Virus record (IMG/VR): IMGVR_UViG_3300029070_000006 | Coordinates: 1 to 16,986 of that record | Direction: 5' to 3' (one strand) | DNA length: 16,986 nucleotides | From: a virus | Shown: in pieces, positions 1 through 13,897 of the stretch | Layout of the letters: each line of letters opens with the position of its first letter | Numbering within the stretch: the stretch's first letter is position 1 | Translations under genes and position numbers: made by a program | Notes under the pieces: model-generated | Seen by the model: only the letters and a program-made list of their open reading frames with translations | Told to the model about the DNA's origin: nothing | The model's database searches: none

Positions 1-99
1 CAGCCGTTCTGCTGTGGTGCCGACCCAGTGCAGGCCCGTGTAACGTGCATCGGATGATACGGGCCCTTGTTTCTGCAATCTTTTCCACAGGATCATGCG
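1..99. repeat. Terminal overlap, copy 1 (identical to 16888..16986)
   Basis: Read base by base; 99/99 identical. It lies inside a coding region, so it fits an assembly overlap of a circular or concatemeric molecule rather than a physical end. Confidence 0.95.
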
Positions 100-540
100 G
101 CTGGAGGCGCTGAGCTCCAACAGCCAGCCGCCGCCATGTGGCCGGGCTTCGCCGCCGTTCTGCACCAGCCCGTCGAACAATGTCGTCGCCGTGCTTGACT
201 TGTCGGAAGGGTTGCCGGGCGTGTACGCCTGGTGCAACACTGCCAAGCGCATGCGCTGCGCCGACCATGCGCCCATATCCGGGCGGAGCATGCCCCATGT
301 GGGCTGTTCTGAGATCTGCACGAGCACGCGCGCGCCGGCCAGCGTGAGCGCGCGGCCGGTGAGCCAACCGGTTGCATCGCGCAGCCGGAAGGTCATCACG
401 GACGGGTCGGGCTGCTGGTCGATGCCGTCGGTGCCCCACTGGATGCTGAAGCCGTCCAACGCGGCCACGTCGTTGTCGTGGTCGTTGACGGCAACCCAGC
501 CGTCGCCCCAGTCAAGGAACATGAAACACTGCTGCGCCAT
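1..540 (-). CDS. Minor tail protein in the Dit position, N-terminal part. The full gene is join(15898..16887,1..540), 509 aa.
   Basis: ATG at 538..540 overlaps the tape-measure TGA (540..542) by 1 nt. The frame is open to position 1 and in phase with ORF 15898..16983 (444 nt between 540 and 96). The translation starts MAQQCFMFLDWGDGWVAVNDHDNDVAALDGFSIQWGTDG. The gene lies immediately after the TMP. Confidence 0.7.
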   Translation of the reverse strand, partial: MAQQCFMFLDWGDGWVAVNDHDNDVAALDGFSIQWGTDGIDQQPDPSVMTFRLRDATGWLTGRALTLAGARVLVQISEQPTWGMLRPDMGAWSAQRMRLAVLHQAYTPGNPSDKSSTATTLFDGLVQNGGEARPHGGGWLLELSASSRMILWKRLQKQGPVSSDARYTGLHWVGTTAERL

Positions 541-2462
541 CAGTTGCCTCGCTTCCGGTCGTAGTCGCGGAGAATCTTCCTGATTTCGCGTGCCACGCCC
601 TCACGGTCCACCGGCGCGTTGAACGTGACGTTCACGACGGTGCCGCCCATGCCGGCGCCGCCGTTCACACCGGCGTCCAGGCTCAGGCCGCCCATGCGCC
701 CATTGATCCGCGAGATGGTGCGCCGAACGTCCGCGTCGAAACCGCTGCGCAAACCGCGCGCAAATCCCTGCATGATGAGACGGCCGTTATTCACGAGCAT
801 TACCGCGTCGTATTCCGGCGGGCCCTTGTGCTCCTTGATCCAGTCGCCGATACCGCTGATCCAGCCGGTCACGCTGTTCCACATGCTCTTCAGGCCGTCA
901 AGGAAACCGCTGATGATGGACGCACCGGCGTTATACAACAGGTTGCCCACGTTGCCTATCGCGCCGGTGATACGTCCCGGCAATCCCCTGAACCAGTCCA
1001 CGACGGCGTTCCACTTGTCGGTCGCGAACTGTGCGGCCGACTGGAAGAAACCGCCTATCTTGCCCGGCAACGCCTGGAAGAATCCCACGATGCCGTCCAC
1101 GCACGAGCCGAGAAACGCGGTGAACCGGCTCCACAACTGGCGGCCCGTCTCGGTCTGCGTGAAGAACCAGACGAGCGCGGCGACCAGCGCGCCTATCGCG
1201 GTGACGACGATCATGATCGGGTTCGCGTTCATGGCGACGTTCAAAGCCCATTGCGCGATCTCGGCGGCCGTTGTTGCGAAGCTGAAGCCCTGTAACGCGG
1301 ACGTCACGGCGCTTACCACACTGGCGACCTTGAACGCGGCGAAACCGCCACCGATGGCGACTAGCGCGCCCGCGATGGGTTCCGCGTTCGCGCTCACCCA
1401 GTCGCCGAACTCGGTAAGCTTGTCCGCCACCATCTTCACCACGCCGGCCGCGCCGTTGAACGCGTCGCCCACGCTCGTGCCGATGCCTCCCGCGTCGTTC
1501 AATCCCTGCAATCCGGGCGCTATCTCCGTGGCGATATTCGCGAACGCCTGACCCAACGCGGACAACGCGGAGCCCACGGCGTTCATCATGTCCTTTGCGG
1601 TCTGGAACGCTCCCGTGTCCTGCAACGCCGTGGCGAACGCCTGTATGTTGTTGGTCGCGGTGGTGGCGAACGATCCGACCGCTTCGGCCGCGCCGCCGAT
1701 GGCGTCGGTGACGGCCGGCTTTATGAGGTTGAACGCGTCCGTGAGCCCGCCGGTGACGGCGGCCTCAAGATTGCCCAACGCGCCTTCCATGGTCTGCGTC
1801 GATGTGGCGGCCTCTTTCGCCACGTCGGTCATGCCCAGGTCCATGATGGCCTTGTTGAACTCGTCGGCCGTGATCTCGCCTTTTTCCATGGCCTCGCGGA
1901 AATTGCCCGTGTACGCTCCCGCGTTCAACATGGCTTCCTGGAGCTTGCCGGCCGCGCCGGGGATGGCGTCGGTCAGCTGGTTCCAGTTCTCCGTCGTGAG
2001 CTTGCCCGCGCCTGCGGTCTGCGTCATTACCATGGCAACCGATTTGAACGTGTCGGCGTTTCCGCCGGCGACGGCGTTCAGGTTGCCCGCTGCCTCGGTC
2101 AATCCGACGTAATCCTGGATGCCGTTGGCCGCGAGCTGCGCCGTGGTGTTCTGCACGGTGGTGAGGTCGTACACGGTCTTGTCGGCGTAGTCGCGTGTGG
2201 CCTTCGTCGCGGCCTCCACGGCTCCCGTGTCGAAGCCCGCGAAATTCATTGTGCTTTTGAACTTGTCCGTGGAATCGGACATGTCCATGACGGCGCCGGT
2301 GAAGCCCTTGAGCGTGTCCCACAAGGCGGAAACGCCCTTGAGCGCGGCACCGCCCATGAACGTGCCGAACGCCGACGCTTTCGCCGTGACCTTGGAGAGC
2401 GCTTTAACGGCGTCGTCGCTGTTGCCCGTGATCCGCACGGACATGATGGCGCTTTTACCCAT
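540..2462 (-). CDS. Tail tape measure protein (640 aa)
   Basis: It is the longest ORF, Ala/Gly-rich and helical, with internal hydrophobic segments (IMIVVTAIGALVAALVWFF). It follows the G/GT chaperone pair. A GGAGGA RBS lies 10 nt upstream of the ATG. Confidence 0.85.
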   Translation of the reverse strand: MGKSAIMSVRITGNSDDAVKALSKVTAKASAFGTFMGGAALKGVSALWDTLKGFTGAVMDMSDSTDKFKSTMNFAGFDTGAVEAATKATRDYADKTVYDLTTVQNTTAQLAANGIQDYVGLTEAAGNLNAVAGGNADTFKSVAMVMTQTAGAGKLTTENWNQLTDAIPGAAGKLQEAMLNAGAYTGNFREAMEKGEITADEFNKAIMDLGMTDVAKEAATSTQTMEGALGNLEAAVTGGLTDAFNLIKPAVTDAIGGAAEAVGSFATTATNNIQAFATALQDTGAFQTAKDMMNAVGSALSALGQAFANIATEIAPGLQGLNDAGGIGTSVGDAFNGAAGVVKMVADKLTEFGDWVSANAEPIAGALVAIGGGFAAFKVASVVSAVTSALQGFSFATTAAEIAQWALNVAMNANPIMIVVTAIGALVAALVWFFTQTETGRQLWSRFTAFLGSCVDGIVGFFQALPGKIGGFFQSAAQFATDKWNAVVDWFRGLPGRITGAIGNVGNLLYNAGASIISGFLDGLKSMWNSVTGWISGIGDWIKEHKGPPEYDAVMLVNNGRLIMQGFARGLRSGFDADVRRTISRINGRMGGLSLDAGVNGGAGMGGTVVNVTFNAPVDREGVAREIRKILRDYDRKRGN

Positions 2463-2468
2463 ATCGGC

Positions 2469-2639
2469 CTAATCCTCCATTCGGTCCATCTCGTCTTGCA
2501 GCAGTCTTAAACCGGTGCCCCAGTCCAGTTCGTCGGCCTCGTGCCGCCATGCCCACGGCGTGCCGCCGAAGCGTGCCGCGAGCATGAACGACAGGATCCC
2601 TAACGAATCGTCGGGCCACTCGGCTAGTTCGTAGGGTTT
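2469..2639 (-). CDS. Tail assembly chaperone -1 frameshift extension (T part; predicted GT product 137 aa)
   Basis: The -1 frame after A AAC CCT reads YELAEWPDDSLGILSFMLAARFGGTPWAWRHEADELDWGTGLRLLQDEMDRMED and then stops at TAG 2469..2471. Third-position GC is high. There is no independent start with an RBS. Confidence 0.65.
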   Translation of the reverse strand, partial: KPYELAEWPDDSLGILSFMLAARFGGTPWAWRHEADELDWGTGLRLLQDEMDRMED

Positions 2640-2881
2640 TCCGGCGTCTCCACGTCGATGTCGTCCACGAGGTCAAGCCATTGTTCGTAAGGCGTGGTGG
2701 TGTTGCCGGCGTAGCGCTGCGCGAGATACGCCATGTAGTACGACTGGCGAATCTTGCTTGCTTCGCCCGGCTCCCATCCCTCTTTCTGCGCGTGTTCCTC
2801 GGCGGACGTGATGACGCGCGGCGTCAACGGTGCTTCGTCCACATGGCCGTCGGTGTAGGTGACTTTCGCGGTGCTTCGCAT
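2624..2881 (-). CDS. Tail assembly chaperone G (85 aa)
   Basis: Small acidic ORF directly upstream of the TMP, with an AAGGAG RBS. It contains the slippery heptamer near its 3-prime end. Confidence 0.7.
   Translation of the reverse strand: MRSTAKVTYTDGHVDEAPLTPRVITSAEEHAQKEGWEPGEASKIRQSYYMAYLAQRYAGNTTTPYEQWLDLVDDIDVETPENPTN
2633..2639 (-). promoter_or_regulatory. Programmed -1 ribosomal frameshift heptamer A AAC CCT (G/GT)
   Basis: Canonical X XXY YYZ in the G frame (gaA AAC CCT), with only two further sense codons before the G stop. Confidence 0.6.
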
Positions 2882-2884
2882 GGT

Positions 2885-3268
2885 TCATGCTCCTTTGATC
2901 TGGTTCATGGTCTTCTTCACGAACTGTTCGTATTCCTTCGCCCACTGGCCTTCGGTCGAGGCCACGGCGTCGTTAACGAACGTTCTCGGTTTGATGTGCC
3001 GTGCGGGCCAGCCGTAATTGATCGGTCCCGCATATGGCACGGTCTTGCGGCCGGCGCGGATGATACCGGCCTTCTGGGTCGCGCCCACGCGTATCGATCC
3101 GGCGAGTTTGCCGGTCCTTCCGCGTGGCGCGCGGGCCACCGCCTCGGGTTTGGCGATGTCGGCGGCCCGCCGGTTGACCTCCTTCAGCTCCTTCATGTCG
3201 GCGCCGGCCTTGCGCATGGTCTGTACGAAACGCTTCTGACCGACGACGTACAGGGCCTTGTCGGCCAT
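2885..3268 (-). CDS. HK97 gp10-family neck/tail-completion protein (127 aa)
   Basis: The motif APRGRTGKLAGSIRV...VPYAGPINYGWP resembles the gp10-family (P.dTG.L..SI ... Y..vE.G) signature. Confidence 0.6.
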   Translation of the reverse strand: MADKALYVVGQKRFVQTMRKAGADMKELKEVNRRAADIAKPEAVARAPRGRTGKLAGSIRVGATQKAGIIRAGRKTVPYAGPINYGWPARHIKPRTFVNDAVASTEGQWAKEYEQFVKKTMNQIKGA

Positions 3269-3269
3269 G

Positions 3270-3692
3270 TCAGGCGCTCGTCGGCGTGTACGCCGACGCC
3301 TTCACGTCGGTGGCGGAAAACTCAAAATCCTTCTTGTTCTTCGTCTTCACGTCACCGCCGAACGCGATGGGCGCGATGACCACGCGCATGTCCAGCTGGA
3401 GCTTGCCGGCAGTGTTCGGCACGAACTTCGCAGCCTTCGTCTCGCCCGCGTGATTCAGGCAATACACCTGCGCGCCGTTCATGCTGTAGTCCTCGGCGAT
3501 GCTCCCCGACAGCTTCCACGACGTCGTGAGCGCGCCGCCCTCCTCGTGGCCGTCCAGGTACGTGTCGGGGTCCTCGCTCGAATTGTCCGGCGACAGTTCC
3601 ACGCTCGTGCAATCGACGTCCAGCTTGTACTGGTCGTCTGAGGAGCCGATGACCAGGCTTCCCGGTCCCAGGGTACGAATCTTGTCCGCCAT
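3270..3692 (-). CDS. Major tail (tube) protein, actinophage type (140 aa)
   Basis: The pattern LGPGSLVIG...LSGSIAEDY...KFVPN...IAPIAFGGDVKTKN..DFEFSA is typical of small actinophage tail tube proteins. An AAAGGAA RBS is present. Confidence 0.6.
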   Translation of the reverse strand: MADKIRTLGPGSLVIGSSDDQYKLDVDCTSVELSPDNSSEDPDTYLDGHEEGGALTTSWKLSGSIAEDYSMNGAQVYCLNHAGETKAAKFVPNTAGKLQLDMRVVIAPIAFGGDVKTKNKKDFEFSATDVKASAYTPTSA

Positions 3693-3709
3693 GATGGTTG
3701 TTCCTTTCG

Positions 3710-4075
3710 TTAGATTTCATTGAGTGTGATCTGGTAGGCCGCGAGCGTCGCGTCTCCACGCGTGAAGCCGACGGGCTCGGCCGATGTGACAGGCAGCGCG
3801 GACGCCACGAGCCGGTCCATCGCGGCCAGTAGCAGCGGCAGCGCGGACGCCTGCGCCCAGGGACTGCCGGCGACGAGCACGAGCCGCACCGATAGTTCGT
3901 TTTCCGCGCCCGCGTAGGGCCATGCCACTTCGGGGGGTTTGACCCATACGCAGACCTTGCCGCGTGGCGGCTTCACCTCGGTCTCGTCGATGGTGACGTG
4001 TTCCACGAGGTCGCCGCACGCGCCGGCCACCTGTTCCATGAGCGCGTCGATCTTGCCGGTGATGGTGTTTGTCAT
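3710..4075 (-). CDS. Tail terminator-like / head-tail joining protein (121 aa)
   Basis: ATGA overlap with the upstream connector gene. Size and position between the connector and tube genes fit, and the pattern is DUF3168-like (weak). Confidence 0.4.
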   Translation of the reverse strand: MTNTITGKIDALMEQVAGACGDLVEHVTIDETEVKPPRGKVCVWVKPPEVAWPYAGAENELSVRLVLVAGSPWAQASALPLLLAAMDRLVASALPVTSAEPVGFTRGDATLAAYQITLNEI

Positions 4076-4404
4076 GCGATCCCCATTCCCGCGAGCACGC
4101 CGGCGGCGCGGAGCTTCGGCCAGGCGGCGCGCAACGGGTCGGCGGAGACGCGGAACGGTTCGATGGCGTCGCTGTCCACGTTCATCACGCCGTTGCGCGC
4201 GTCCTTCTGGTTGAACAGGTCGGCGGCGACCGCCAGCACGCAATCCGACTGGATCAGGTCGGGCACCGTGTCCCACGTCTCGCCCAGGTTCGCCGACAAG
4301 TAGGCGCGAGCCGTTTTCAGGCAACCGTCGGCGCGTTTCTCGTCCTCGCTGCCGATGACGTTCATCATCGCGAGGAAATCCGCATGCAAGGCGTCTTCTT
4401 CCAT
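4072..4404 (-). CDS. gp6-like head-tail connector (110 aa)
   Basis: Pattern LKTARAYLSANLG...SDCVLAVAADLFN, AGGAGA RBS, and position downstream of the capsid module. Confidence 0.6.
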   Translation of the reverse strand: MEEDALHADFLAMMNVIGSEDEKRADGCLKTARAYLSANLGETWDTVPDLIQSDCVLAVAADLFNQKDARNGVMNVDSDAIEPFRVSADPLRAAWPKLRAAGVLAGMGIA

Positions 4405-4412
4405 ACGCTCTC

Positions 4413-4778
4413 CTATCCGTCGGTCTCGGACGTTCCGTCTGAAATGGCGGTCAGCACAGGCATGATGTCCGCGTCAACGGTGCTGCCGTTGCGGGTAATG
4501 ACACCGCAGCTGTAGGTGCCGGCCGTGGTTATCGTGAACGGTTCGGTTGAGATTGTGTTGTAGTTCTTGCCGTCAACGGTGATCTGCACATACAGGTTCT
4601 GTCTATCGGTGCCGACGCTGCCGGCCAGGCTGTATCTTCCGGGCTGCAACGTGACTTCGCTGCCGACGCCGCCCCATGCGGTGCAGGTGCCGACGGCGTG
4701 AATGACGCCTTCCGACTTGTATGTGTAGGCCACGCCGTTACGAGCGGCCGGCAGTTTCGGCAATGGATAGAGGTTCAA
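4413..4778 (-). CDS. Small beta-sandwich (CBM/decoration-like) protein 2 (121 aa; TTG start)
   Basis: The TTG at 4776..4778 is preceded by GAGGGGGGG. It appears to be a distant paralog of the upstream ORF (GVIHAVG vs GSLHLAG; QPGRYSL vs PAGTYSY). Confidence 0.5.
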   Translation of the reverse strand: MNLYPLPKLPAARNGVAYTYKSEGVIHAVGTCTAWGGVGSEVTLQPGRYSLAGSVGTDRQNLYVQITVDGKNYNTISTEPFTITTAGTYSCGVITRNGSTVDADIMPVLTAISDGTSETDG

Positions 4779-4779
4779 G

Positions 4780-5217
4780 TCAGTTCCCCCCCTCGAGGCC
4801 TGTGTTGTCCGGGCGCGTCCAGTCGGTGGCCGTGGCGCCGAGCTCGAGCTGTGCTCGCAGATCGCCGTCGATCGGATTGGTGGTCGATGCCGCGATGCGC
4901 AGTTCAAGAGTGACCGTGTCCTCCGGGATGACGCTCGGTTTGTCGGTTTCGAGTGTGGCCAGCAGGCTCAGGTTGGTGCCACGTGCCTGCAAGTACGAGT
5001 ACGTGCCGGCAGGGAATTGCGCGACCGAATAGATGACCGTCTGGCCCTTTGCTGTGTCCGGGCACTCCCACCGCCACCGAAGGCCCTTGTTGGCTGTCGG
5101 CGCGTCACCGGCCAGGTGCAGGCTGCCGTCCTCGTTCACAGTCGCCGTCAGTCCCGATCCGGAGGCCGGGCCGTAGGCGAGCAGGTTACGCGACGCTACC
5201 GGCGGGGGAGGGGTCAC
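4780..5217 (-). CDS. Beta-sandwich (CBM/decoration-like) domain ORF 1 (145 aa from GTG). Probably expressed as a -1 frameshift extension of the capsid protein.
   Basis: There is no ATG. GTG overlaps the capsid TGA (GTGA). The ORF starts with the linker-like TPPPPVAS and ends QLELGATATDWTRP, resembling the LE.G..ATDW.P ending of phage fibre/CBM domains. Confidence 0.55.
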   Translation of the reverse strand: MTPPPPVASRNLLAYGPASGSGLTATVNEDGSLHLAGDAPTANKGLRWRWECPDTAKGQTVIYSVAQFPAGTYSYLQARGTNLSLLATLETDKPSVIPEDTVTLELRIAASTTNPIDGDLRAQLELGATATDWTRPDNTGLEGGN

Positions 5218-6779
5218 GCTTTTGGGGCCAGCGGCATGATTCCCCCCTCGAACACGGTCGCGAACGCGGCGTAGCCGTACACGCTGTAATTGGAAAGCAG
5301 TTTGGTGGTGTCGTCCTGCTGGAGCTGGAACGGGCCGCCGGCCTCCCACATCTGCAACGCGGTCGGGTCGATGAACGCGGCCGTGTTCGCGGCGGCACCC
5401 GGCACCATCTGCACGGGGACCGACAGCATGCGGCCGGTCACGCCGGTGAGGCTCATGCTGCCGAGCTTGTCCACGCCCTCGCCGGACACGTCCATGAGCG
5501 CGTCGCCGCTGCGCGTGATCTTCGCCATGGCGTCGAACACGTCCTTGCTGACAGCGAGCGTGCCCAGCTGGGCGCCGCGAGCGTCGGCGGCCTCGGCCGC
5601 GTTGATGATGACGGTAATCCACTGGTCTGCGGTGAGCGTGCTCACGGCGGCCGGCGTGTCCAGCTTGTTCGCCGTCGCGGCGGTGATGGCTGCGGTGAGC
5701 TTGGCGCGTGCCGCCGATTCCACGGCGTTGCTGTACGCGATGGTGAGCGCGCGAAGCGCGGTGTCCAAGGCGGGCGTGTTGCTGCGTTCGATGACCTGGC
5801 GTGACAGCTGTGCGTAGCCGCCGTAGGTGGCGACGGCAGCGGTCGCGCTGGTCAGTGTGATCTTGCCCGTTGCCAGCGTCGTGCCTTCCGTGGCCTGCTG
5901 CGTGACCTTGAGCGTGTTCGATCCGAGCTTGAGATATTCCAGCGTCATGCCGGTGGCAGGCAATGCCGCATGCTGGAACAGGGTCGCCACGCTGCGGCGC
6001 GACTGGATGAGTCGAATCTGGTCGGCGACCCACGTGTTCGTGTTGTGCACGTCGGTGCTGGAGATGAGGTCACGGGCCTCGCGCATGAACTCATACGCGG
6101 TGTCTTCGCCGGCCGCGAGCGATTTGGCGTATTCGCCGGCCGAACGGTACTGGCCGCCGATGATGTGCGGCGGTTCGGGCTGCTGCCGGTCGATGGTGTC
6201 GGCGAGAGAGCGAATCTGCATTTCGAGCTGGTCGAAACGCGATTCCTGGGTGGGTTCGTTTTCCACTGTTTTCTCCTTGGTTTCGTTGGTTTCCTGGTTG
6301 ACGTGTTCCTGGTCGCGCTGGCCGGTGATGGCGGCGCCCGTATAGGCGGGGATTCCGGTGACGGCTACCTCCAGCAATCGGACCGCGCGGCGCACGTACA
6401 CGGTCGTATCGCCTTCCACGCGCTTGTCCGTTGTCACCGGCTGGAATCCCACGGAGAACGAATCGACCACGCCGTCACGGATCAGCTGCACCGCGTCGCG
6501 CCCTTCGGCGGTGTCGCTGATGGCTGCGGTGATGTGCAGGCCGTCGGCTTCCCTGGTGGCGTTCGTGATCTTGCCGATGAGACGGCCGTGGTCACGGCTG
6601 AGCTTCGTGCGTGTGGTGTCGCCGAAATCGCAGTCCGGCGCGAACTCCTCGGCGGTGCCCGGCCATAGGCCGATGCGCTGGCCGAACGGCACGGCTATGC
6701 CCTCGATGCTGGTGCCGTCGCCTTCCGTCTCGCGTAGCTCGATGCCTCTCATGGTGATGGTGCGTTTCTCGGTGCTCAT
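5214..6779 (-). CDS. Fused HK97-type prohead protease (S78/U35) and major capsid protein (521 aa)
   Basis: The N-terminus carries DHGRLIGK...GLHITA...DSFSVGF (protease His/Ser motifs). The middle is an acidic coiled linker (ETNETKEKTVENEPTQESRFDQLEMQIRSL). The C-terminal ~290 aa look like an HK97-fold capsid. ATGA overlap with the portal gene and an AGGAGG RBS. Confidence 0.75.
   Translation of the reverse strand: MSTEKRTITMRGIELRETEGDGTSIEGIAVPFGQRIGLWPGTAEEFAPDCDFGDTTRTKLSRDHGRLIGKITNATREADGLHITAAISDTAEGRDAVQLIRDGVVDSFSVGFQPVTTDKRVEGDTTVYVRRAVRLLEVAVTGIPAYTGAAITGQRDQEHVNQETNETKEKTVENEPTQESRFDQLEMQIRSLADTIDRQQPEPPHIIGGQYRSAGEYAKSLAAGEDTAYEFMREARDLISSTDVHNTNTWVADQIRLIQSRRSVATLFQHAALPATGMTLEYLKLGSNTLKVTQQATEGTTLATGKITLTSATAAVATYGGYAQLSRQVIERSNTPALDTALRALTIAYSNAVESAARAKLTAAITAATANKLDTPAAVSTLTADQWITVIINAAEAADARGAQLGTLAVSKDVFDAMAKITRSGDALMDVSGEGVDKLGSMSLTGVTGRMLSVPVQMVPGAAANTAAFIDPTALQMWEAGGPFQLQQDDTTKLLSNYSVYGYAAFATVFEGGIMPLAPKA
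5220..5226 (-). promoter_or_regulatory. Candidate -1 frameshift heptamer C CCA AAA at the capsid 3-prime end
   Basis: The capsid frame reads gcC CCA AAA gcg tga. The -1 frame continues AGC GTG ACC CCT CCC CCG (S V T P P P), which is the frame of ORF 4780..5217. Confidence 0.5.
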
Positions 6780-7897
6780 AATGCGACCTCCTGCGGTGCT
6801 GTCTGGTTGATGGGCGCCCATCCTTCCTTCGCGCGCGCCTCGTTCACGGTCAGGAAACCGGCGGCGATGGCGGTCTGGTAGGCGGAATAGCGCGTGTTCG
6901 TGTCGGAACGGTGCAGGGAATCCCAATCGGGTTCGACCCATTGGCCTTCGGGCAGCAGCGATGACAGGGCCTCGCATATCTCGTCGGCGTAGGCGCTCAG
7001 CGTGTATTCGGCGAACGTGAGCCATTCCTGTTCGATGTTCGAGTAGGTCAGCGTCGTGCCTTCCACCTTCGCGAGCATGAGCGACGCGGGGATTCCCAAT
7101 AGGCGGGCTATCTGCGTGGTGTTGAACTGCTGGGATTCGATGAATTGGAGGTCTTCGGGGCTCAATGCCAACGGCGTGTAGTCCAGGCCCTTGCCGAGCA
7201 CTCGAACGCCGCCGGCGCCGCCCTTGGCCCAGCGTTCCGAAGCCGTCTGCGCGTCCTGGTCGCTCAGTATCTGGTCGCTTTTCAGGATTCCGGCGGGCCG
7301 TGCCGTGTTGTCCAGCCAGTTCGCCGCGTAGGCGCGCGTGTCCTGAGCGCCCTCGATCTCCTCGCGCGCCGCGCTGATGGGCCCCATGCCGCGAAGGCGT
7401 CCGGCGACGTTCAGCAGCTTCAGATGCACGATGCGGTCGGCGCCGTAGTCCACGCCGCGATACGAGTAGCGCAGGCGCGGGTTCGCGGGGTCCATGTTCA
7501 AATCGGTGACGGTGACGAGCTGCGGCGGCAGGCTGCGCACGCCGACGAGCACGCCGGAGATTTCCACCTTGAGCAGGAAAGCGTTGCCGTTCAACGCGAG
7601 GGCTGAAACGAGGTCGCCGAACAGGTCGCGGCGGCTGCGGTTCAAATCGGGACGGGTGATGAGCGTGCTCGGCCTCATGCGCGAGCCGTCCGGCGCGTAC
7701 TGGATCACCGGGAGCTTGCTCACGGCGGTCTCGATGATCTGCACGCCGCGAAACACGGTGGACAACGCCAATGGATCATGCGAGGCTTCCGGGCGTGCAG
7801 GCAGCACGGGCGCTTCGGAATCCCCGTCATCGGCCGTGGCCTGCGCGGCGCGCAACATCAACGCGGCGGTGCTGGAGATGCGTGACAGAAGACTCAT
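6776..7897 (-). CDS. Portal protein, HK97 family (373 aa)
   Basis: Size, its position between terL and the protease, and motifs (LNGNAFLL, NWLDN..RPAGILK, QQFN..QIARLLGIP). Confidence 0.8.
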   Translation of the reverse strand: MSLLSRISSTAALMLRAAQATADDGDSEAPVLPARPEASHDPLALSTVFRGVQIIETAVSKLPVIQYAPDGSRMRPSTLITRPDLNRSRRDLFGDLVSALALNGNAFLLKVEISGVLVGVRSLPPQLVTVTDLNMDPANPRLRYSYRGVDYGADRIVHLKLLNVAGRLRGMGPISAAREEIEGAQDTRAYAANWLDNTARPAGILKSDQILSDQDAQTASERWAKGGAGGVRVLGKGLDYTPLALSPEDLQFIESQQFNTTQIARLLGIPASLMLAKVEGTTLTYSNIEQEWLTFAEYTLSAYADEICEALSSLLPEGQWVEPDWDSLHRSDTNTRYSAYQTAIAAGFLTVNEARAKEGWAPINQTAPQEVAL

Positions 7898-7948
7898 GCG
7901 GCCGATTCAACGCCACACATGCCGGACCACGCAAAAAAACCATCAACA

Positions 7949-7988
7949 AACATCTAAAAACGTCTAAGAACATCTAAAAACGTCTAAA
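7949..7988. repeat. 20-bp tandem direct repeat x2 (aacatctaaaaacgtctaaR) in the AT-rich terL-portal spacer
   Basis: catctaaaaacgtctaa occurs at 7951..7967 and at 7971..7987. The second copy overlaps the terL stop codon. Confidence 0.85.
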
Positions 7989-9435
7989 CGAAAATCTGCA
8001 AAGGCGCGGCCGGTTGAGCGTGCAGCGACGCGGTGACGGCGAGCTGCGCGGCCTCAAGCGCGTTTATGGCCTGTTCGCTGTTGCGCCTGGATAAGACCCA
8101 GCTGTCGGCGACCCACCGGCGCACCGCGACGGCGGCAGCGTCGTCCAGCGCCGGATCAGGCACGTGCAACACCTGGCGTTGCATGAGCCGGTCAAGCATG
8201 AGCACGCCGGCCGCGACTATCTCCGTGTTCCCGATATCCGACAACCGGTATTCAGGCGTGCCGTCCGCCGCGACCTCATGCAACCGGTCGGCCAACGGCG
8301 CGGACGGGCCGCGCCGGTCTATGGCTATCGGCGCGCCGCCATACCGTGATTGCAGGTCGGCCAGCCGTTCGGCCGCGCCGGCGGTGCCCGGCAGCACGTC
8401 CACGATCTGCACGACGGTGACGCCATCGCGCCGGCACGCGGCGGCTATCGCGGTCGATTCCGATTCCATGCCGACCGCGACGCCGAACGCGAGCGTGTCC
8501 AGGTCGAGCGCCGACAGGTCGAGCGGCGCGGTCTCGGTCTCCGTCCACAAGGCGGCGGGGTAGACGCGTTCGGTGCTGGACGTGTCACGGAGATTGCAGA
8601 ACGCGCGACGCCAGCCGGCCGGGTCGTCCGCGAACTGGTCGCGAAAGTCCTTGAGCTGCCGACGGTCGAACAGATAGCCGCAACCCGGATGCGCGCGGGC
8701 TACGGCGTCCAGGTCCTCGCTGTCCTTCGCGGGGTCAAGCCCCCAATCGAAGAACGCCCAACGTTTCGGGATGTCGCCGGCACGGCACCGGTCAAGCAGC
8801 GCGTTGTAATACTCGCTTTCAGCCGTGCCCTCCGTGCTCGTGATCCACAATTGCGGACGGACGCCCGTGGCCCTCATGCGCGTGGTCGTCGTCGGGATGA
8901 AGCCGTCAAGAATCTGCTTGGCCTGGAGCGCCGACAGCGCCCACACCTCGTCAAGGTTGATGAAATCGCCTTGGAAACCATGGCCGGCGCTCTCGGTCAT
9001 GCTTCCCGGCCGCAACGTGCTGCCGTTGACGAGCGGCAACGCCATGCTGCCGTTCGACATGCGCGGGTTCCCGTCGATCAGCGCCGACAGGGGAGAACGC
9101 ACCACGCTTTTGATGAGCTTGCGGAACTGCTCGTTGCTGTCCTTGCCGGTCTGCGCCAGATACCACACTTCGCGGTCGGGCCCAAGCAGCGCGTTGCGCA
9201 ACTGCTCGGCCTTGCTGATGGTCGTCTTGCCGGCCTGGCGTTGCACTGACACAATCACACGGTCGTAGTAGTACGTGCCAGTTTCCGGGTCGATTTCACC
9301 GGCAACGTCCGCGACCTGCTGCTGCCACGGGATCAGCGGTTGACCCAACGCGGCGGAGATGCGCGCCACCTTGCCGCCGTCCGTCTCACGCGCGGGGTCG
9401 CGCGGGGTCGCGTGGCGCGCCGGTGCCGACCTCAC
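7984..9435 (-). CDS. terL: Terminase large subunit (483 aa; GTG start)
   Basis: Walker A QRQAGKTT, a downstream nuclease-type acidic region, and a GTGA overlap with terS. Confidence 0.85.
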   Translation of the reverse strand: MRSAPARHATPRDPARETDGGKVARISAALGQPLIPWQQQVADVAGEIDPETGTYYYDRVIVSVQRQAGKTTISKAEQLRNALLGPDREVWYLAQTGKDSNEQFRKLIKSVVRSPLSALIDGNPRMSNGSMALPLVNGSTLRPGSMTESAGHGFQGDFINLDEVWALSALQAKQILDGFIPTTTTRMRATGVRPQLWITSTEGTAESEYYNALLDRCRAGDIPKRWAFFDWGLDPAKDSEDLDAVARAHPGCGYLFDRRQLKDFRDQFADDPAGWRRAFCNLRDTSSTERVYPAALWTETETAPLDLSALDLDTLAFGVAVGMESESTAIAAACRRDGVTVVQIVDVLPGTAGAAERLADLQSRYGGAPIAIDRRGPSAPLADRLHEVAADGTPEYRLSDIGNTEIVAAGVLMLDRLMQRQVLHVPDPALDDAAAVAVRRWVADSWVLSRRNSEQAINALEAAQLAVTASLHAQPAAPLQIFV

Positions 9436-9746
9436 TGCGCCATGTCCTTGAGCAGCTGCGCGAGGTCGCCGGCCTTCGCGGACGATTCGGACGGCTGCAA
9501 CCGGTCGATGGTCTCGTTATAGCTCGTCACCATGCGGGAGATATCACGGCCCTTGCGACACAACCGGTCGATGGTGCGGGCGCACGTGAGCAGCAGCGTG
9601 CACAGGGCTCGGCGCTGCGGCGTCAGGTTCGCGTCGTCCTGCAACAACTCGCCGACGAGCTCCTTGGTCGAGTTGGTGAGCGGGTTCGTGAGCTCGTCGC
9701 TGTCCTCCATGCCTGGAAGTGTCATCTGCTTGTCGTTATCGTCCAT
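9432..9746 (-). CDS. terS: Terminase small subunit (104 aa)
   Basis: Small acidic, helical ORF directly upstream of terL and translationally coupled to it. AAGGAG RBS. Confidence 0.6.
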   Translation of the reverse strand: MDDNDKQMTLPGMEDSDELTNPLTNSTKELVGELLQDDANLTPQRRALCTLLLTCARTIDRLCRKGRDISRMVTSYNETIDRLQPSESSAKAGDLAQLLKDMAQ

Positions 9747-9812
9747 GATTTGCGCTCCTTGCCTATCGGTGTTACTGTCTGGAACTGGCTTAATTCCGCC
9801 GATTGGTGGAGC

Positions 9813-9841
9813 GCCGCGCCCTTCACGGCGCGGCTTTTTTT
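9813..9841 (+). terminator. Intrinsic-terminator-like hairpin oriented for the plus strand (gccgcgcc-cttcac-ggcgcggc followed by T7)
   Basis: An 8-bp all-GC stem at 9813..9820/9827..9834 is followed by ttttttt. It lies in the HNH-terS spacer, opposite to the flanking genes. Confidence 0.55.
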
Positions 9842-9909
9842 ATTTGGGTTGGGGATACGAAATCGGTGGGCGCGGGGTGTCCCTTCAGATACGTCTCTTA
9901 AAAAACCGG

Positions 9910-10635
9910 CTACCATCGCGGCCGCGCCGACGCCGCCGGCGACGAGCTCGGAGCATCGAGCAGGCGAAGCCGCGCCAGCCACGCGCGCCTGCGTTCCAGC
10001 AGGCCGTCAACACGCGACTGGGTGATGCCCAGGCGACGCCACCGCTTCAGCAGCTCCATGTCCTCACGGCCACGGCCCTGCTCGGCCATGCGCTGCCTCA
10101 GCTGCGCGTCGTCCATGTCCAGCACCACCACGTCATAGTTCAACGCCACCCACTCGGCCAGCATATCCGGGCTGTTACGCGACTGAGGCAACGCACGCAC
10201 CAGCCACACATGCCGGGCCGTGAGCATGCGTGACACACGACGGTACGCGCCACCCCACAGCACATCGGCCAATGCGTGAGCCTCGCTGCCGCCATCCACG
10301 CACGCGGCCGCCAACCGTGACGGGTCAATCACGATATCGCCCGGCGCCATGTGCTCACGCACATAATCGGTCTTGCCCACGCACGGCGGCCCTATCACGG
10401 CAGTGACCTGCGCGCCGAAGCCGTTCACGACACGATCTGCACGCAACGAGTTGCAATGCTTGCACGCCGGGCGAAGATTCGCCGGCATGGTCGGGCCGTG
10501 CAGACTGTACGGCTTCACATGGTCCATGGTCTGCGCGCCTTGGTGCGTGCAACCCGGCATGCCCAGCCAACAATCCGAACCGAACATGAGCAGCACCTGA
10601 GCGGCCATGCTCGGCGGCACCCTCTTACGCTTCAC
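9910..10635 (-). CDS. HNH endonuclease fused to a P-loop NTPase/kinase-like domain (241 aa from GTG; alternative ATG at 10608)
   Basis: HNH-type Cys pairs (Zn-finger-like) and catalytic motifs: CWLGMPGC...DHVKP...N..PACKHCN. Then Walker A GPPCVGKT and Walker B-like VVVLDMDD. GTGA overlap with the upstream gene. Confidence 0.7.
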   Translation of the reverse strand: MKRKRVPPSMAAQVLLMFGSDCWLGMPGCTHQGAQTMDHVKPYSLHGPTMPANLRPACKHCNSLRADRVVNGFGAQVTAVIGPPCVGKTDYVREHMAPGDIVIDPSRLAAACVDGGSEAHALADVLWGGAYRRVSRMLTARHVWLVRALPQSRNSPDMLAEWVALNYDVVVLDMDDAQLRQRMAEQGRGREDMELLKRWRRLGITQSRVDGLLERRRAWLARLRLLDAPSSSPAASARPRW

Positions 10636-10814
10636 TGCTGCCTCCCAAGCCACTTGTTGACATCGGCCACGCGATACACCACACGGCCCTCCAGCATCCG
10701 CCATTTCGGCCCCTTGCCCTGCTTGCGCCACATGTAGAGCGTCTGCCCGGACTTGCCTAGGAACTCGGCCAGCTCACGCGCGTACAGGAAACCACGGCCC
10801 ATCAGTGGCACCAC
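10632..10814 (-). CDS. Excisionase/AlpA-type HTH DNA-binding protein (56 aa from ATG 10802, or 60 aa from GTG 10814)
   Basis: YARELAEFLGKSGQTLYMWRKQGKGP...RVVYRVADVNKWL matches the HTH_17/excisionase pattern. The ATG at 10800..10802 overlaps the upstream TGA by 1 nt. Confidence 0.65.
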   Translation of the reverse strand: MVPLMGRGFLYARELAEFLGKSGQTLYMWRKQGKGPKWRMLEGRVVYRVADVNKWLGRQQ

Positions 10815-11131
10815 GCCTTGAACGACGCGACCACATCACGACAGTCATACGTCTTCATGCCCAGCATGCGGCCCACCGGACGGATGCCCGCGCCCTGGCG
10901 TTCGGACAGGATCAGTTGCATATCGTTATCCGCTCCCGGCGTCTTCACGCTCAATCCGATCATCGTCATGAGCTCCTGCCTGGTGATGGTCTCCGAACAC
11001 GCGCACCGCTCCTCGATGTGAGGCAACGAATACTTCACCATCGCCCTGAGCATCCTCAGTTTCGACTTGGACGCCGGCGACTGGGTGACGTTGCGTTTGC
11101 GTGTTGGTTTGTAATCGACTGCATATCCCAT
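10802..11131 (-). CDS. Hypothetical protein (109 aa), possible small DNA-binding protein
   Basis: ORF with a GAGG RBS and a possible HTH-like stretch (ITRQELMTMIGLS). No family was recognised. Confidence 0.45.
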   Translation of the reverse strand: MGYAVDYKPTRKRNVTQSPASKSKLRMLRAMVKYSLPHIEERCACSETITRQELMTMIGLSVKTPGADNDMQLILSERQGAGIRPVGRMLGMKTYDCRDVVASFKAWCH

Positions 11132-11159
11132 AACAGCTACCTCGATTCGTTCGATTGAT

Positions 11160-11553
11160 TCATTCAGAGACTTTTGGGTGGTGGGTGGTTAGAGCGGGGA
11201 GACCTAAACGCAGGCGACGAAAAAGACTCGAACAAAAGTTCGTAGTCTCTTCGTCGTCTACAGGTCTCCACGCGAGACTTTCGGTCTGGAGCCGGGCCGT
11301 CGCATTGTCGAGAGCGGGCATACGCCCGCCGTGAATGGTCCCGCCAGAGCCCCCGCAATCGCGGTACGCCGCCCTATTACGCCTTAACCGGCAAGCCCTG
11401 GTGGTAGGGAAAGCGCTCAAGACCACAGGTCAGGTTTCGTTCCGCTCGTAACGTTACGCCAGACGTCCGCAGTGGGTTAGACCCGTCAACGTGCTACCGG
11501 GTCCCTGCACATCCCCGGTCACGGCACATTCAGTTATCCAGAAAAACGAATGG
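11160..11553 (-). other. ORF-free, highly structured non-coding region (candidate ncRNA, origin or regulatory array)
   Basis: No credible ORF on either strand. It contains a 72-nt compound hairpin, a 12-bp perfect palindrome, a GC stem with a tetraloop and 5 GAGAC/GTCTC copies. Strand and function are unknown. Confidence 0.4.
11198..11269. repeat. Long compound hairpin / imperfect palindrome
   Basis: Nested pairings: ggagacct (11198..11205) with aggtctcc (11262..11269); ggcgacgaa (11213..11221) with ttcgtcgtc (11250..11258, one G-T pair); agact+cgaac (11224..11233) with gttcg+agtct (11238..11248), closing an aaaa loop. Confidence 0.75.
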
Positions 11554-11727
11554 TTATTCAGGCGGCGAAGACAACGCCGCGTAAAGCTCGTGGAACAACG
11601 ACAACGCCTCCTCGCGCGTGAACGAATAGATACGCCCGCGATCCTCGCGCCGACGCGAACGCACCAGCGGGACGATCGTCACGACCACGTACCCCTGAGC
11701 GGAGCGACTGACGGTGAACTCATACAT
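11554..11727 (-). CDS. Hypothetical small protein (57 aa)
   Basis: MYEFTVSRSAQGYVVVTIV... has high third-position GC (13/16 in the first codons). A GC hairpin (11561..11567/11575..11581) sits at its 3-prime end. Confidence 0.45.
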   Translation of the reverse strand: MYEFTVSRSAQGYVVVTIVPLVRSRRREDRGRIYSFTREEALSLFHELYAALSSPPE

Positions 11728-12293
11728 CGCGCCACCGCAGAATCCTCGCCCGGACCAGTCGAGCGATCTGACGAAGCTAGAGCTTGGAGTGCATTGGGTA
11801 TCATCTCCAACCCGTCTCCACCGGTGTCGATATACGCAATTCCCGATCTGGGGCATAGAACCAATGAAGTGCGGACCCTTTGAACGCCTGCGCAGATGGC
11901 ATAGGGACAGGCTGGGTCATCGCAGGTTCCATGCTCTCGACAGAAAACGGGCTTCAGAACAGAGAAGACTCCTGAGTTAGGAACAATCCGATACGTCCCG
12001 TCCGAAAAAACCTCAAAAGCGTCGTCGGAATCAGCCACGCCGTCGGAATCCTTACGACGAGTCCAATCATCCTTGATTTGCGGAGCAAAGCCGAACTGTG
12101 TTCTTAACTCCCAATCGTGAACGATCTTGTGGTCGTAGGGAAGCCCCACATGCTTGCGCGAGGACTCCAAAGCGTAACGACTACGCTCCACGGCCCCAGC
12201 GGCCTCGATTCGTGCCATGCGGGACCAGTAAAGCGCGGCGCAGGAAATAACCAAGGACGCAAAAGAAACACCCAACGAAACGAAGCCAAACAT
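11679..12293 (-). CDS. Hypothetical membrane-anchored protein (204 aa), low-GC insert
   Basis: N-terminal TM segment FGFVSLGVSFASLVISCAALYW and a Cys-containing C-terminal domain. The ATG overlaps the Cro-like TGA by 1 nt. The last ~16 codons overlap the 57-aa ORF, so the end is uncertain. Confidence 0.5.
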   Translation of the reverse strand: MFGFVSLGVSFASLVISCAALYWSRMARIEAAGAVERSRYALESSRKHVGLPYDHKIVHDWELRTQFGFAPQIKDDWTRRKDSDGVADSDDAFEVFSDGTYRIVPNSGVFSVLKPVFCREHGTCDDPACPYAICAGVQRVRTSLVLCPRSGIAYIDTGGDGLEMIPNALQALASSDRSTGPGEDSAVARCMSSPSVAPLRGTWS

Positions 12294-12499
12294 CACAACA
12301 CCTCCAAGGGCTCGCGGCCAAGCACGAGATCAGTGGAAACGTCGAAAAAGTCGGCTATGCGCGACACATCACGCAACGTGAAATTTGAGCGGCCATGGAA
12401 TTTGTCGCTGATGGCCTGCTCGGAGACGCCTAGCTCATGCGCCAGATCGCGCTGTGTGACGTGATTGTCTCTCATGAGTTTTCTTATCTGACTAATCAT
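12293..12499 (-). CDS. Cro-like XRE-family HTH regulator (68 aa)
   Basis: VTQRDLAHELGVSEQAISDKFHGRSNFTLRDVSRIADFF is a classic XRE HTH. It is divergent from the second HTH gene. Confidence 0.75.
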   Translation of the reverse strand: MISQIRKLMRDNHVTQRDLAHELGVSEQAISDKFHGRSNFTLRDVSRIADFFDVSTDLVLGREPLEVL

Positions 12500-12598
12500 T
12501 TAAAAACTTTCAGACTAAAGATTTGATGAAGTTCTAGACCAAAGATTAACCATATGACGTAGCCAACACGCCGAGTACTACGCTAAAACCGTAGTAAA
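12500..12598. promoter_or_regulatory. AT-rich divergent switch region with candidate operators
   Basis: Direct repeat agacYaaagatt at 12512..12523 and 12536..12547. Inverted repeat tactacg/cgtagta at 12576..12582/12590..12596. A TAAAAT -10-like hexamer at 12595..12600 lies 7 nt before ATG 12608, which could allow a leaderless start. Confidence 0.4.
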
Positions 12599-13024
12599 AT
12601 GAATTTCATGACAATGCTAGATATTCAGCCGAGCGCTACATTGCGCAGGCAGGACGTTGTTGCGATGAATACGAACATGATCTTGTCCAACAGCGGTTTA
12701 ATGAAGAAGGACCTTGCTAAGGCAATGGGACTCTCGCCGCAATCGATGGCGTCGAGGCTTCAGAGCAAGGCCGATTGGACCATTGACGAAACTTGCGCGG
12801 CGGCCGATTTCTTCGGCGTCCCGTTGATGGCTTTGCTGGATGAGAACTTAACGCCAGCAAAAGCCATGGAATATATAAAAAACCGCCGTTCCGATAATGG
12901 GAACGGCGGTCAAGTGGTAGCGGGGCATGGATTTGAACCATGGACCTCTGGTAACGTTGTTGCCCAGAGGTCCACGGTTCAAATCCATGAAGCCCGATTA
13001 TTTGATTTTATCCTAGCGGCGTAA
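12599..13024 (+). CDS. CI-like XRE-family HTH repressor candidate (up to 141 aa; start uncertain: 12599, 12608 or 12614). Its C-terminus reads through the attP core and ends ...FILAA.
   Basis: HTH MKKDLAKAMGLSPQSMASRLQSKADWTIDETCAAADFF. The ORF stays open through the tRNA-like segment to TAA 13022..13024, 18 nt before the integrase ORF. Confidence 0.65.
   Translation: MNFMTMLDIQPSATLRRQDVVAMNTNMILSNSGLMKKDLAKAMGLSPQSMASRLQSKADWTIDETCAAADFFGVPLMALLDENLTPAKAMEYIKNRRSDNGNGGQVVAGHGFEPWTSGNVVAQRSTVQIHEARLFDFILAA
12877..12910 (-). terminator. Intrinsic terminator on the minus strand, immediately 3-prime of the tRNA fragment
   Basis: An 11-bp stem accgccgttcc (12882..12892) with ggaacggcggt (12900..12910) and loop gataatg. 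On the minus strand it is followed by TTTTTT (12877..12882). Confidence 0.65.
12915..12951 (-). other. tRNA 3-prime-end fragment (variable loop, T-arm, acceptor strand, CCA): candidate attP core
   Basis: The minus strand reads CCAGAGGTC-CATGG-TTCAAAT-CCATG-CCCCGCT-A-CCA. That gives a perfect 5-bp T stem, a canonical T loop, a 7-nt acceptor strand, the discriminator and CCA. No D-arm or anticodon arm is present, so it is not a complete gene. Confidence 0.7.
12926..12989. repeat. 26-bp inverted repeat (25/26) with a 12-nt spacer. The right arm is a degenerate inverted copy of the tRNA fragment.
   Basis: catggatttgaaccatggacctctgg (12926..12951), spacer taacgttgttgc, then ccagaggtccacggttcaaatccatg (12964..12989). 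Confidence 0.85.
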
Positions 13025-13042
13025 TGCCGCCGGCCGCCAAGG

Positions 13043-13882
13043 ATGCCGGCCGTGAGTATGCACAAAAAGCTGCCCCCTGCTCAGTGGCGGGACGAAATCA
13101 CCCTATGGCTCGAATCGCTCACGGCGGCGGGTCTCAGTCAGGACACGATCAACACGCGGCGGTGCAAGATAGGGCACGCGGCGCGGTGCCTGGATAAATC
13201 GCCCTATGACGTGACGTCAGAGGATCTAGTGCATTGGACGGCCTCGCAGTCCTGGAAGGCGGAGACGCGCAAGGGCTATCGGAATACGCTCGTCGGTTTT
13301 TTCCGGTGGCTGCATGCCACGGGCCGGCGCGCGGACGATCCGGCGGTCGCGCTGCCGAAGGTGCGCAAGACGCGGCCGCATCCCCGCCCGTGCCCCGACG
13401 CGCACATATACGCCGCCATGTGCGCCGCGAACGATGTGGAACGGCTCATGCTGCGCCTTGGTGCCGAAGCCGGGTTGAGACTGTCCGAAATCGCGGCCGT
13501 CCACTCGCGCGACGTGCTGGAAGGCGACGCCGGCCCGTCGCTGATAGTGCGGGGCAAGGGCGACAAACAGCGCATAGTGCCCATAAGCGAAGACCTGGCG
13601 AAGCGGATAACGGCCGCGCCCGGTTGGCTGTTCCCCGGCCGGTGGCGGGGACACGTCGAAAAATCGTATGTGTCCCGCCACCTCACACGGCTGCTGCCGG
13701 ACGGTTGGGGGCCGCACTCGCTGCGCCACCGGTACGCCACGCGCATGTACGAGACCACGCACGATCTGCTGCTGGTCTCGAAGCTGCTGGGACATAGCAG
13801 CGTGGAGACCACGCAAATCTACGTGGCGATGCCGGATAGCCGGCTGCGCGTCGGCCTGGACGCGGTGACGTTGGCCGGCTAG
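13043..13882 (+). CDS. int: Tyrosine recombinase/integrase, short XerC/D-like (279 aa; alternative starts GTG 13052, ATG 13058)
   Basis: Candidate catalytic residues: GLRLSE (R), KGDKQR (K), HSLRHRYAT (H-x-x-R), LGHSSVETTQIYV (H...Y). There is a SAM-like core-binding N-terminus but no obvious arm-binding domain. Confidence 0.85.
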   Translation: MPAVSMHKKLPPAQWRDEITLWLESLTAAGLSQDTINTRRCKIGHAARCLDKSPYDVTSEDLVHWTASQSWKAETRKGYRNTLVGFFRWLHATGRRADDPAVALPKVRKTRPHPRPCPDAHIYAAMCAANDVERLMLRLGAEAGLRLSEIAAVHSRDVLEGDAGPSLIVRGKGDKQRIVPISEDLAKRITAAPGWLFPGRWRGHVEKSYVSRHLTRLLPDGWGPHSLRHRYATRMYETTHDLLLVSKLLGHSSVETTQIYVAMPDSRLRVGLDAVTLAG

Positions 13883-13897
13883 ATTATTTGCCGGCCA
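13872..13897. terminator. Hairpin at the convergent int/holin gene ends (tggccggc-N10-gccggcca)
   Basis: An 8-bp GC-rich stem encloses both stop codons. There is no clear U-tract on either strand. Confidence 0.35.

Follow-up and report, generated by a model that had tools for sequence, protein, structure and literature searches.

Recoding at the 3′ end of a major virion protein gene gives rise to two forms of the protein, the longer of which carries an accessory domain, in phages T3 and T7 (gene 10A/10B), in the Listeria phages A118, A500 and PSA, and in the class with immunoglobulin-like (Ig-like) domains (Fraser et al. 2006). By the review text, the payloads described for such frameshifts are mostly Ig-like and the shift in PSA is +1. 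In Lactobacillus phage A2, -1 frameshifting together with the slippery sequence CCCAAAA is documented (PMC5009743, PMC6950654), and CCCAAAA is the slippery sequence of the A2-group major head genes (PMC6950654). Here, we analysed IMG/VR virus record IMGVR_UViG_3300029070_000006 over positions 1 to 16,986 (the window), in which the gene for a fusion of prohead protease and major capsid protein ends in the same heptamer. Our comparison suggests that C CCA AAA at 5226..5220 probably directs a -1 frameshift, which would join the capsid protein to a proline linker and a jelly-roll domain. An earlier note on this DNA had proposed a -1 fusion of the capsid protein to a display domain, and the comparative evidence now lends this proposal strong support, as far as sequence can do so.

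The comparison with A2 was made on the A2 genome record sequence. Open reading frame (ORF) 5, which encodes the major head protein (gp5A/gp5B), ends ACC CCA AAA GCG TAA and ORF10, which encodes the major tail protein, ends GCC CCA AAA GCG TAG, with the heptamer in register in both. The window has the identical C CCA AAA in the identical register, followed by the same codon GCG and a stop one codon on. The 0-frame tail (A/T)PKA* is common to A2 and the window. The A2 -1 frames encode an 87-aa or 82-aa Big_2 domain and start SVTPDG... in the head protein and SVVGVS... in the tail protein, so that the head extension begins SVTP like that of the window. The A2 precedent, which the earlier note had cited, is correct and closer than was claimed, since ORF5 and ORF10 both carry the same cassette, with -1 frames starting SV. 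The A2 product is a minority, C-terminally extended major virion protein, and the window product is predicted to be of the same kind.

The two systems differ in several respects. The domain added in A2 is an entire Big_2 Ig-like domain, and that of the window would be a non-Ig jelly-roll behind a proline linker; capsid and protease are separate genes in A2 and fused in the window; and the hosts belong to different phyla. By the review text, the slippery sites of T7 and T3 and the shift direction of PSA also differ from those of the window. The earlier note had placed the extension within the theme of appended Ig-like domains, which holds for A2 and for relatives of the window (L039 and L060 append Big_2 sequence); the window payload itself is not Ig-like, unlike most of those described, and lies outside the class of Fraser et al. 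(2006) in this respect. These data support the addition of a further example to the A2-type class of structural-protein frameshifts, the mechanism itself not being new. What sets it apart within that class is the non-Ig, fibre-like payload, the protease–capsid fusion that carries it and the Bifidobacterium host. On our reading, the bifidoprophage paper PMC6109161 does not describe it.

The junction at the end of the capsid gene

The capsid gene ends ...CTG GCC CCA AAA GCG TGA, which places the heptamer one codon before the stop with the -1 frame open, just as the earlier note had read it (Table 1). After a slip, the codons would be AGC GTG ACC CCT CCC CCG CCG GTA GCG TCG CGT AAC CTG CTC (S V T P P P P V A S R N L L), and the frame continues to a total of 146 codons (5220..4783). 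The fusion would thus comprise 520 + 146 = 666 aa, the length calculated before. As also pointed out earlier, these 146 codons contain no Met and no Shine–Dalgarno (SD) sequence precedes them, the GTG in the overlap being the only start available. The heptamer is unusual in its composition and position: the structural genes, with 2,982 codons, contain just six X XXY YYZ heptamers in frame (the tail-chaperone site among them), and this one is built from rare codons, with CCA making up 5% of Pro codons and AAA 24% of Lys codons (P of about 0.013 for CCA-AAA). The extension opens with the tetra-proline linker that the earlier note had described, which corresponds to a run of C10 in L068 and of C9 or CCAC7 in the sister cassette described below. 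Such a linker is a sensible beginning for a fused domain and not for a free protein.

The 0-frame product of 521 aa contains Pfam Peptidase_S78 (PF04586) at residues 13-162 and Phage_capsid_4 (PF25209) at residues 266-510, and matches phrog_2263, a major head protein. With an S78 protease followed by an HK97-type capsid domain in a single ORF, it is a protease–capsid fusion. The Microbacterium cluster-EE-like and Curtobacterium phages (~17 kb siphoviruses) have a protein annotated 'major capsid and protease fusion protein' that likewise combines S78 with an HK97-type capsid domain, and they share with the window the gene order terminase, portal, fusion, adaptor, tail. Their fusion protein is 31-33% identical to that of the window, and in the two records inspected the adaptor gene follows it directly, with no extension ORF.

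In the mechanism that we favour, most ribosomes would stop at the TGA (5216..5214) and release the 521-aa protein, while a minority would slip by -1 with CCA and AAA in the P and A sites and re-pair on CCC and AAA. The slipped ribosomes would read AGC GTG ACC..., pass through the tetra-proline linker and translate the 137-residue jelly-roll, giving a 666-aa protease–capsid–linker–domain protein. The N-terminal protease or scaffold part would be removed during head maturation, and some capsid subunits could then display a tail-fibre-like module on the outside of the head. The slip itself, its efficiency, the presence of the long form in capsids and a ligand for the domain are what we infer from these comparisons.

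Table 1. Features of the window around the capsid junction and further features discussed in the text
Feature	Position	Strand	Basis or remark
Prohead protease–major capsid protein fusion, 521 aa, 0-frame product	5214..6779	-	Pfam, PHROGs
Slippery heptamer C CCA AAA	5226..5220	-	X XXY YYZ register of the capsid frame; first C is a third codon position
GCG codon and 0-frame TGA	5214..5219	-	One codon after the heptamer; stop at 5216..5214; includes the incidental GTG 5217..5215
Tetra-proline linker CCT CCC CCG CCG	5200..5211	-	Interrupted C-run
Payload domain (SRNLLAYGPASG...ATDWTRPDNTGLEGGN), 137 residues, predicted jelly-roll beta-sandwich	4783..5193	-	phrog_35081, AlphaFold2, BFVD, PDB
Stop codon of the trans-frame extension, TGA	4780..4782	-	Sequence
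SD-like run of six G, 15 nt before the heptamer	5242..5247	-	Possible local stimulator, outside the conserved cassette
Poly-G run closing the extension at its 3′ end	4786..4792	-	G7; codes for a Gly-rich tail and provides the SD of the ORF that follows
Second accessory ORF, 121 aa, TTG start	4413..4778	-	phrog_35108
Tail-assembly-chaperone-type -1 site A AAC CCT	2639..2633	-	Canonical; five codons before the stop of the 85-aa gene 2624..2881

Conservation of the heptamer in relatives with an extension

We surveyed 80 IMG/VR loci and other loci, with capsid proteins 44-90% identical, and used a script to inspect the 3′ end of each capsid gene, which gave about 34 sequence types of junction. A -1 extension of 48-289 aa without a conserved start of its own occurs in 11 types (the window group; L051/L052; the L060, L096, L087, L099, L063 and L085 types; L068, L072 and L073), and all 11 have C CCA AAA followed by one codon and a stop. 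None of the 23 types without the heptamer has a start-less -1 extension; in these, an adaptor gene with its own ATG comes directly next, except in L097/L102. The association of heptamer and extension is highly significant on types (Fisher p = 3.5e-9), a value that overstates independence because the types are related and not phylogenetically independent. The conservation of CCCAAAA and of the -1 frame in relatives, which the earlier note had named as a check, is thus complete among the extension types.

The closest relatives without an extension (89% identical) write the same Pro-Lys as CCG AAG, and L097, which lacks the first extension, has GCG AAG there. The heptamer is kept with the extension and lost without it, as expected for an A2-type frameshift. 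That it has decayed in lineages without the extension implies that it is under selection in those with one. We also compared 16 sites, consisting of the 11 capsid types, three tail sites and the two A2 sites. All 16 share C CCA AAA G and, after one further codon, the T of the stop, and no other position is invariant. The preceding codon (GCC, TTC, TCC, GAC, AAC or ACC), the next codon (GCG, GGG, GTC, GCC or GCA) and the stop (TGA, TAA or TAG) all vary. Scans of metagenome and viral sequences with a pattern for the exact junction returned just the sister-cassette contigs and chance matches.

The three tail sites extend the parallel with A2. In L063 (6234), L085 (6233) and L091 (4948), C CCA AAA with one codon and TGA ends the major tail gene (...AYPDPKA*), and the -1 frame encodes half a Big_2 domain, so that these phages would seem to use the frameshift at the head gene and at the tail gene, as in A2. 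The tail gene of the window (3270..3692) has no such heptamer.

If the frameshift is confirmed, the A2-type capsid and tail cassette of Lactobacillus phages would also be in use in high-GC prophages of human gut Bifidobacterium, and it could carry non-Ig, fibre-like binding modules and sit on a protease–capsid fusion. Extension ORFs of this kind, now recorded as separate hypothetical genes (P0001, P0002), would be better annotated as joined features, and C CCA AAA G with the stop offers a clean signature for finding further cases.

The payload domain

The payload belongs to phrog_35081 (PHROGs, E = 2e-35), a family of unknown function, and the window extension has no Pfam match to Big_2, any other Ig model or a carbohydrate-binding module (CBM) model. 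The C-terminal motif noticed earlier (QLELGATATDWTRPD) is present and near-invariant, with the Q, L, G, T, A, W, P and D positions unchanged in 22 homologs and E nearly so. The family is small: one search gave 64 clusters and another 76 representatives among 1.84 billion. A tblastn search with the 145-aa ORF against 50,697 phage records gave no match, and a profile search of genome contigs with the payload alignment found one locus, in B. reuteri. Comparison with five homologs, one of them a 94%-identical copy from another phage, gives a ratio of non-synonymous to synonymous substitution rates (dN/dS) of 0.42-0.73 in the -1 frame, which corresponds to moderate purifying selection. Together with the confident fold described next, this shows that the -1 ORF is a real coding sequence.

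An AlphaFold model from 22 sequences was poor, with a predicted local distance difference test (pLDDT) score of 59 and no significant fold match, and was superseded by an AlphaFold2 model on a 42-sequence alignment, which is all-beta with a pLDDT of 96.8 and a predicted template modelling (pTM) score of 0.88. Among its best BFVD matches are predicted structures of tail fibre or receptor-binding proteins and of one annotated galactosidase (template modelling (TM) scores 0.59-0.73), the best of all having E = 8e-8, TM 0.73 and a root mean square deviation of 3.0 A. In the PDB, the best match is the CBM-fold protein Asp3 (6lnw_C; E = 1.3e-4, TM 0.59), followed by CBM22 (E about 2e-3, TM about 0.45), the TM values being moderate. 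By fold, the model is thus similar to a CBM4/9/22-type jelly roll at moderate TM. By sequence profile, it does not belong to a CBM family, with one of 42 family members giving a sub-threshold CBM_4_9_1 match, and a PDB sequence search with the payload family profile found no relative. A few family members lie in frame inside large fibre-like proteins, one of them with collagen repeats. The fibre or carbohydrate-binding beta-sandwich suggested in the earlier note is therefore a fair description according to the model and its BFVD and PDB matches. On the basis of the predicted fold, the payload resembles predicted phage tail-fibre or receptor-binding modules and not Ig-like domains, and it is probably glycan- or surface-binding. 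A capsid-displayed binding module on the phage of a gut commensal would bear on phage adherence to mucus or cell-surface glycans.

Observations against frameshifting and alternative explanations

Several observations weigh against a frameshift at this site, the first of which concerns RNA structure. Neither single folds nor an alignment fold gave a significant or conserved stimulatory structure downstream of the heptamer, and the region downstream of 5220, to which the earlier note had pointed, yielded none. A 7-bp hairpin in the window follows the heptamer with zero spacer and is no more stable than shuffled sequence (z = 0.1-0.7); no equivalent hairpin was found in L020, L068, L072 or L073, and no covariation was found among the alignable Big_2-type junctions. 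The same test on both A2 sites also gave non-significant values (z = 0.87 and -0.51), and the negative result is therefore weak counter-evidence. A stimulatory downstream stem-loop has reportedly been described for A2. The conservation of the heptamer may also be read differently, as it could partly hitch-hike in a mobile cassette and not be selected in each lineage.

The overlap between the capsid gene and the extension raises a further point. The sole start codon near the -1 frame is a GTG at 5217..5215 within a GTGA overlap; coupled genes of this genome normally overlap by 4 nt, and such overlaps are frequent in its relatives. The 145-aa ORF might accordingly be a separate gene restarted at this GTG, whose free protein binds the head non-covalently or acts elsewhere, the heptamer being incidental. 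Gene callers do annotate the ORF separately (P0001, P0002), and distant payload homologs in other contexts have a strong SD and ATG of their own. However, the GTG is a by-product of GCG followed by TGA, and no GGAGG-like element was found in the 25 nt upstream of it (gaatcatgccgctggccccaaaagc), whereas a recognisable SD is present in at least 8 of the 12 genes examined in the window, including a clear one at the capsid gene, whose own start lies in an ATGA overlap. Nor is the GTG conserved where the extension is intact. It is replaced by GTA in L068 and at both A2 sites (the A2 stops are TAA and TAG, which leaves no overlapping GTG) and by CTG in L096/L112/L117 and at the L063 and L085 tail sites. 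L068, with a GCG TAA junction, has an intact 264-aa extension whose first start codon is at codon 24, and L096/L112/L117 have no start in the first 40 extension codons. The conserved start with an SD at 5-10 nt that marks an independent coupled gene is thus missing, and independent initiation cannot be the conserved route of expression, because the GTG is replaced in intact relatives and in A2. A separate gene would also leave the invariant, rare CCA AAA and the fixed stop distance (16 of 16 sites) without an account, along with their loss where the extension is missing, and M-T-P-P-P-P would be an odd beginning for a free protein. We therefore consider a separate gene unlikely. Within the window, the overlap still leaves room for some independent initiation, and GTG initiation could add some free protein to the fusion product.

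The earlier note had held that homologous ORFs with their own ATG and ribosome-binding site and without the heptamer would speak against the frameshift. Such ORFs do exist in L003, L004 and L097, but not for the directly joined form seen in the window, whose counterparts L068, L072 and L073 all keep the heptamer. The three exceptions are no refutation, because they belong to a differently built class in which a second Big_2 half is joined to the payload. Members of this split class have their own ATG even where the heptamer feeds the first half (L039, L060).

Lesions in close relatives also count against a functional extension. In L007 and L008, both 97-99% identical to the window, the heptamer is kept, and L007 has TGG>TAG at the invariant Trp and a divergent 3′ end while L008 has a 1-nt deletion; the two lesions align to about window positions 5076 and 4950, respectively. 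Unless they are assembly errors, the extension is dispensable or decaying in some copies. In addition, a sister cassette has the same heptamer and GTGA junction with a different jelly-roll-like payload starting NLLNDPGFE, and in four of its five independent contigs (L021, L033, L034 and L035) the junction reads GTGA-C9-GG and the payload lies in the +1 frame, beyond the reach of a single -1 slip. L020 (CCACCCCCCC) is the sole sister-cassette contig with the payload in the -1 frame. The sister ORF stays open, and its codon differences (27 non-synonymous and 6 synonymous) are arranged in patches. Its frame might be explained by another slip at C CCC CCC, by a phase-variable tract or by decay.

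These lesions and out-of-frame contigs, and the lack of an extension in the closest, 89%-identical lineage, would fit an extension that is a decaying, unexpressed remnant of a recombined cassette, with the heptamer as inherited baggage. Such a remnant would hardly be expected to keep 146 intact codons in the window, the dN/dS range given above or a domain modelled with a pLDDT of 96.8, and the selection implied by heptamer decay elsewhere also speaks against it. This explanation appears to us quite improbable, somewhat more so than a separate gene.

The C-rich linkers offer another explanation, in which the extension is governed by linker length, through DNA phase variation or transcriptional slippage, and not by frameshifting on the heptamer. 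True homopolymers do occur in relatives, such as the C10 run of L068 and the C9 run of the sister cassette, where tract length sets the frame, and the other end of the domain has a variable poly-G tract. The tract of the window is interrupted, however (CCCCTCCCCCGCC), and since it lies downstream of the capsid stop it cannot alone join the two frames. Moreover, the heptamer is kept in L072, L073 and every Big_2-type junction, none of which has a C-tract. Control by linker length is thus highly improbable, and we regard it as the least credible of these alternatives to -1 frameshifting on C CCA AAA.

Split Big_2 domains and other variant cassettes

Many relatives attach the payload in another way. 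A 53-aa -1 extension forms the first half of a Big_2 domain and runs into an ATGA overlap that has an SD-like sequence ahead of it (GAGGTGATC, AAGGAG or GGGGGA), and the ORF that follows the overlap encodes the second Big_2 half and then the SRNLL payload. This arrangement is seen in L039 (4843..5004 and 5001..5525) and at the junctions of L060, L096, L087, L099, L063 and L085. Single halves have no Pfam Big_2 match, whereas the concatenated halves do: 16.7 bits in L039 (positions 3-76 of 79) and 35.2 bits in L003, rising to 42.3 bits without the junction peptide. Split Big_2 domains also follow the tail-tube gene of L003 (around 2951) and another Big_2 protein in L004 (around 8001), in both cases with a different, +1 junction, and at least three different junction sequences are represented. 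To our knowledge, an Ig domain divided in this manner has not been described.

For the junction in L003 and L004, a +1 frameshift or a 34-nt translational bypass (GGA GTG ... GGG GTA) was considered and rejected, as a strong SD and ATG start the second ORF. Other lineages keep the SD and ATGA at the split Big_2 junction with different sequences, which also speaks against a bypass or +1 shift. The L003 and L004 ORFs were likewise rejected as cassettes of the Rin shufflon (PMC6109161), because their positions on the gene maps are downstream of rin, outside the invertible segment.

Two junctions depart further from the pattern. In L097/L102, the site reads GCG AAG GCG TGA, with neither the heptamer nor a first Big_2 half, and the payload ORF has its own ATG 3 nt after the stop; it still begins with a second Big_2 half, which is an orphaned half domain. 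At the mid-Big_2 junction of L062, the ATG of the overlap is CTG (CAC TGA), and the usual payload start is missing.

A broader and more tentative reading is that CCCAAAA-N3-stop acts as a portable 'socket' of Firmicutes and Actinobacteria phages into which head and tail display modules are plugged, with either covalent or split-Big_2 attachment and with phase variation through homopolymeric linkers; we hold this as a whole to be rather doubtful, though less so than the alternatives weighed above. Attachment would be covalent in the window, L068, L072 and L073, and in many relatives it would run through a Big_2 domain split over two polypeptides. There, the -1 slip would add the first Big_2 half, and the payload protein starting in the ATGA overlap would be fed by the same frameshifted ribosomes, giving matched amounts of the two halves and assembly by strand complementation. 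Since the linkers are homopolymeric (poly-Pro C-runs, poly-Gly G-runs), display could be phase-variable, and the poly-G run at 4792..4786 may toggle the second domain (4778..4413).

G-runs and the second accessory ORF

In relation to the window, the poly-G tract at the end of the extension is longer by 4 nt in L005, by 3 nt in L007 and by 1 nt in L008, all 97-99% identical relatives, and L072 has G10 at the same boundary. These differences may reflect assembly noise, or else a tract that is hypermutable or slippery. In L068, counterparts of the 145-aa and 121-aa ORFs are joined in frame within a single 264-aa extension, in which the TTG start of the window aligns to an internal Leu.

Upstream of the heptamer, the SD-like G-run was considered as a stimulator in the manner of dnaX. 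Variants of it (GGGGGGAA, GGTGGAA and GGAGGAA) occur in the window group and the sister group. It is absent from the extension-less group A, which reads GGC GGC GTC ATG, and from more distant lineages with the heptamer, and is therefore not part of the conserved signal. Given this absence and its distance of 15 nt from the heptamer, a dnaX-style role was rejected. In the window, an in-frame ATG stands 4 nt after the run (GGGGGGAATCATG, 5235..5247, minus strand), and the rarer Gly codons are used there.

Phage genome and its relatives

At 63% GC, the window looks like a complete small temperate siphovirus, encoding an integrase, an HNH protein, terminase, portal, the protease–capsid fusion, an adaptor, tail genes and a tape-measure protein. 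The minus strand carries the structural genes, including all genes around the capsid junction. The nearest annotated relatives are the Microbacterium and Curtobacterium phages introduced above. Closer relatives come from metagenomes and Bifidobacterium genomes, and these fit group 1 of the bifidoprophages described by Mavrich et al. 2018 (PMC6109161), which are ~18 kb long, are integrated at tRNA-Met and include Bb423phi2 and 689b-1. A DNA-level search with the window returned distant Microbacterium portal matches and nothing else. ARAGORN reported a 95-nt tRNA-Gly(gcc) at 8077..8171 (minus strand), inside the terminase ORF 7984..9435, which is probably a false positive. The window also has the tail-assembly-chaperone-type site listed in Table 1, from which the -1 frame runs for 73 codons to 2455 and stops shortly ahead of the ATG of the tape-measure gene (2462), in the classical G/T arrangement; the presence of this canonical -1 site in the same genome also counts in favour of frameshifting at the capsid gene.

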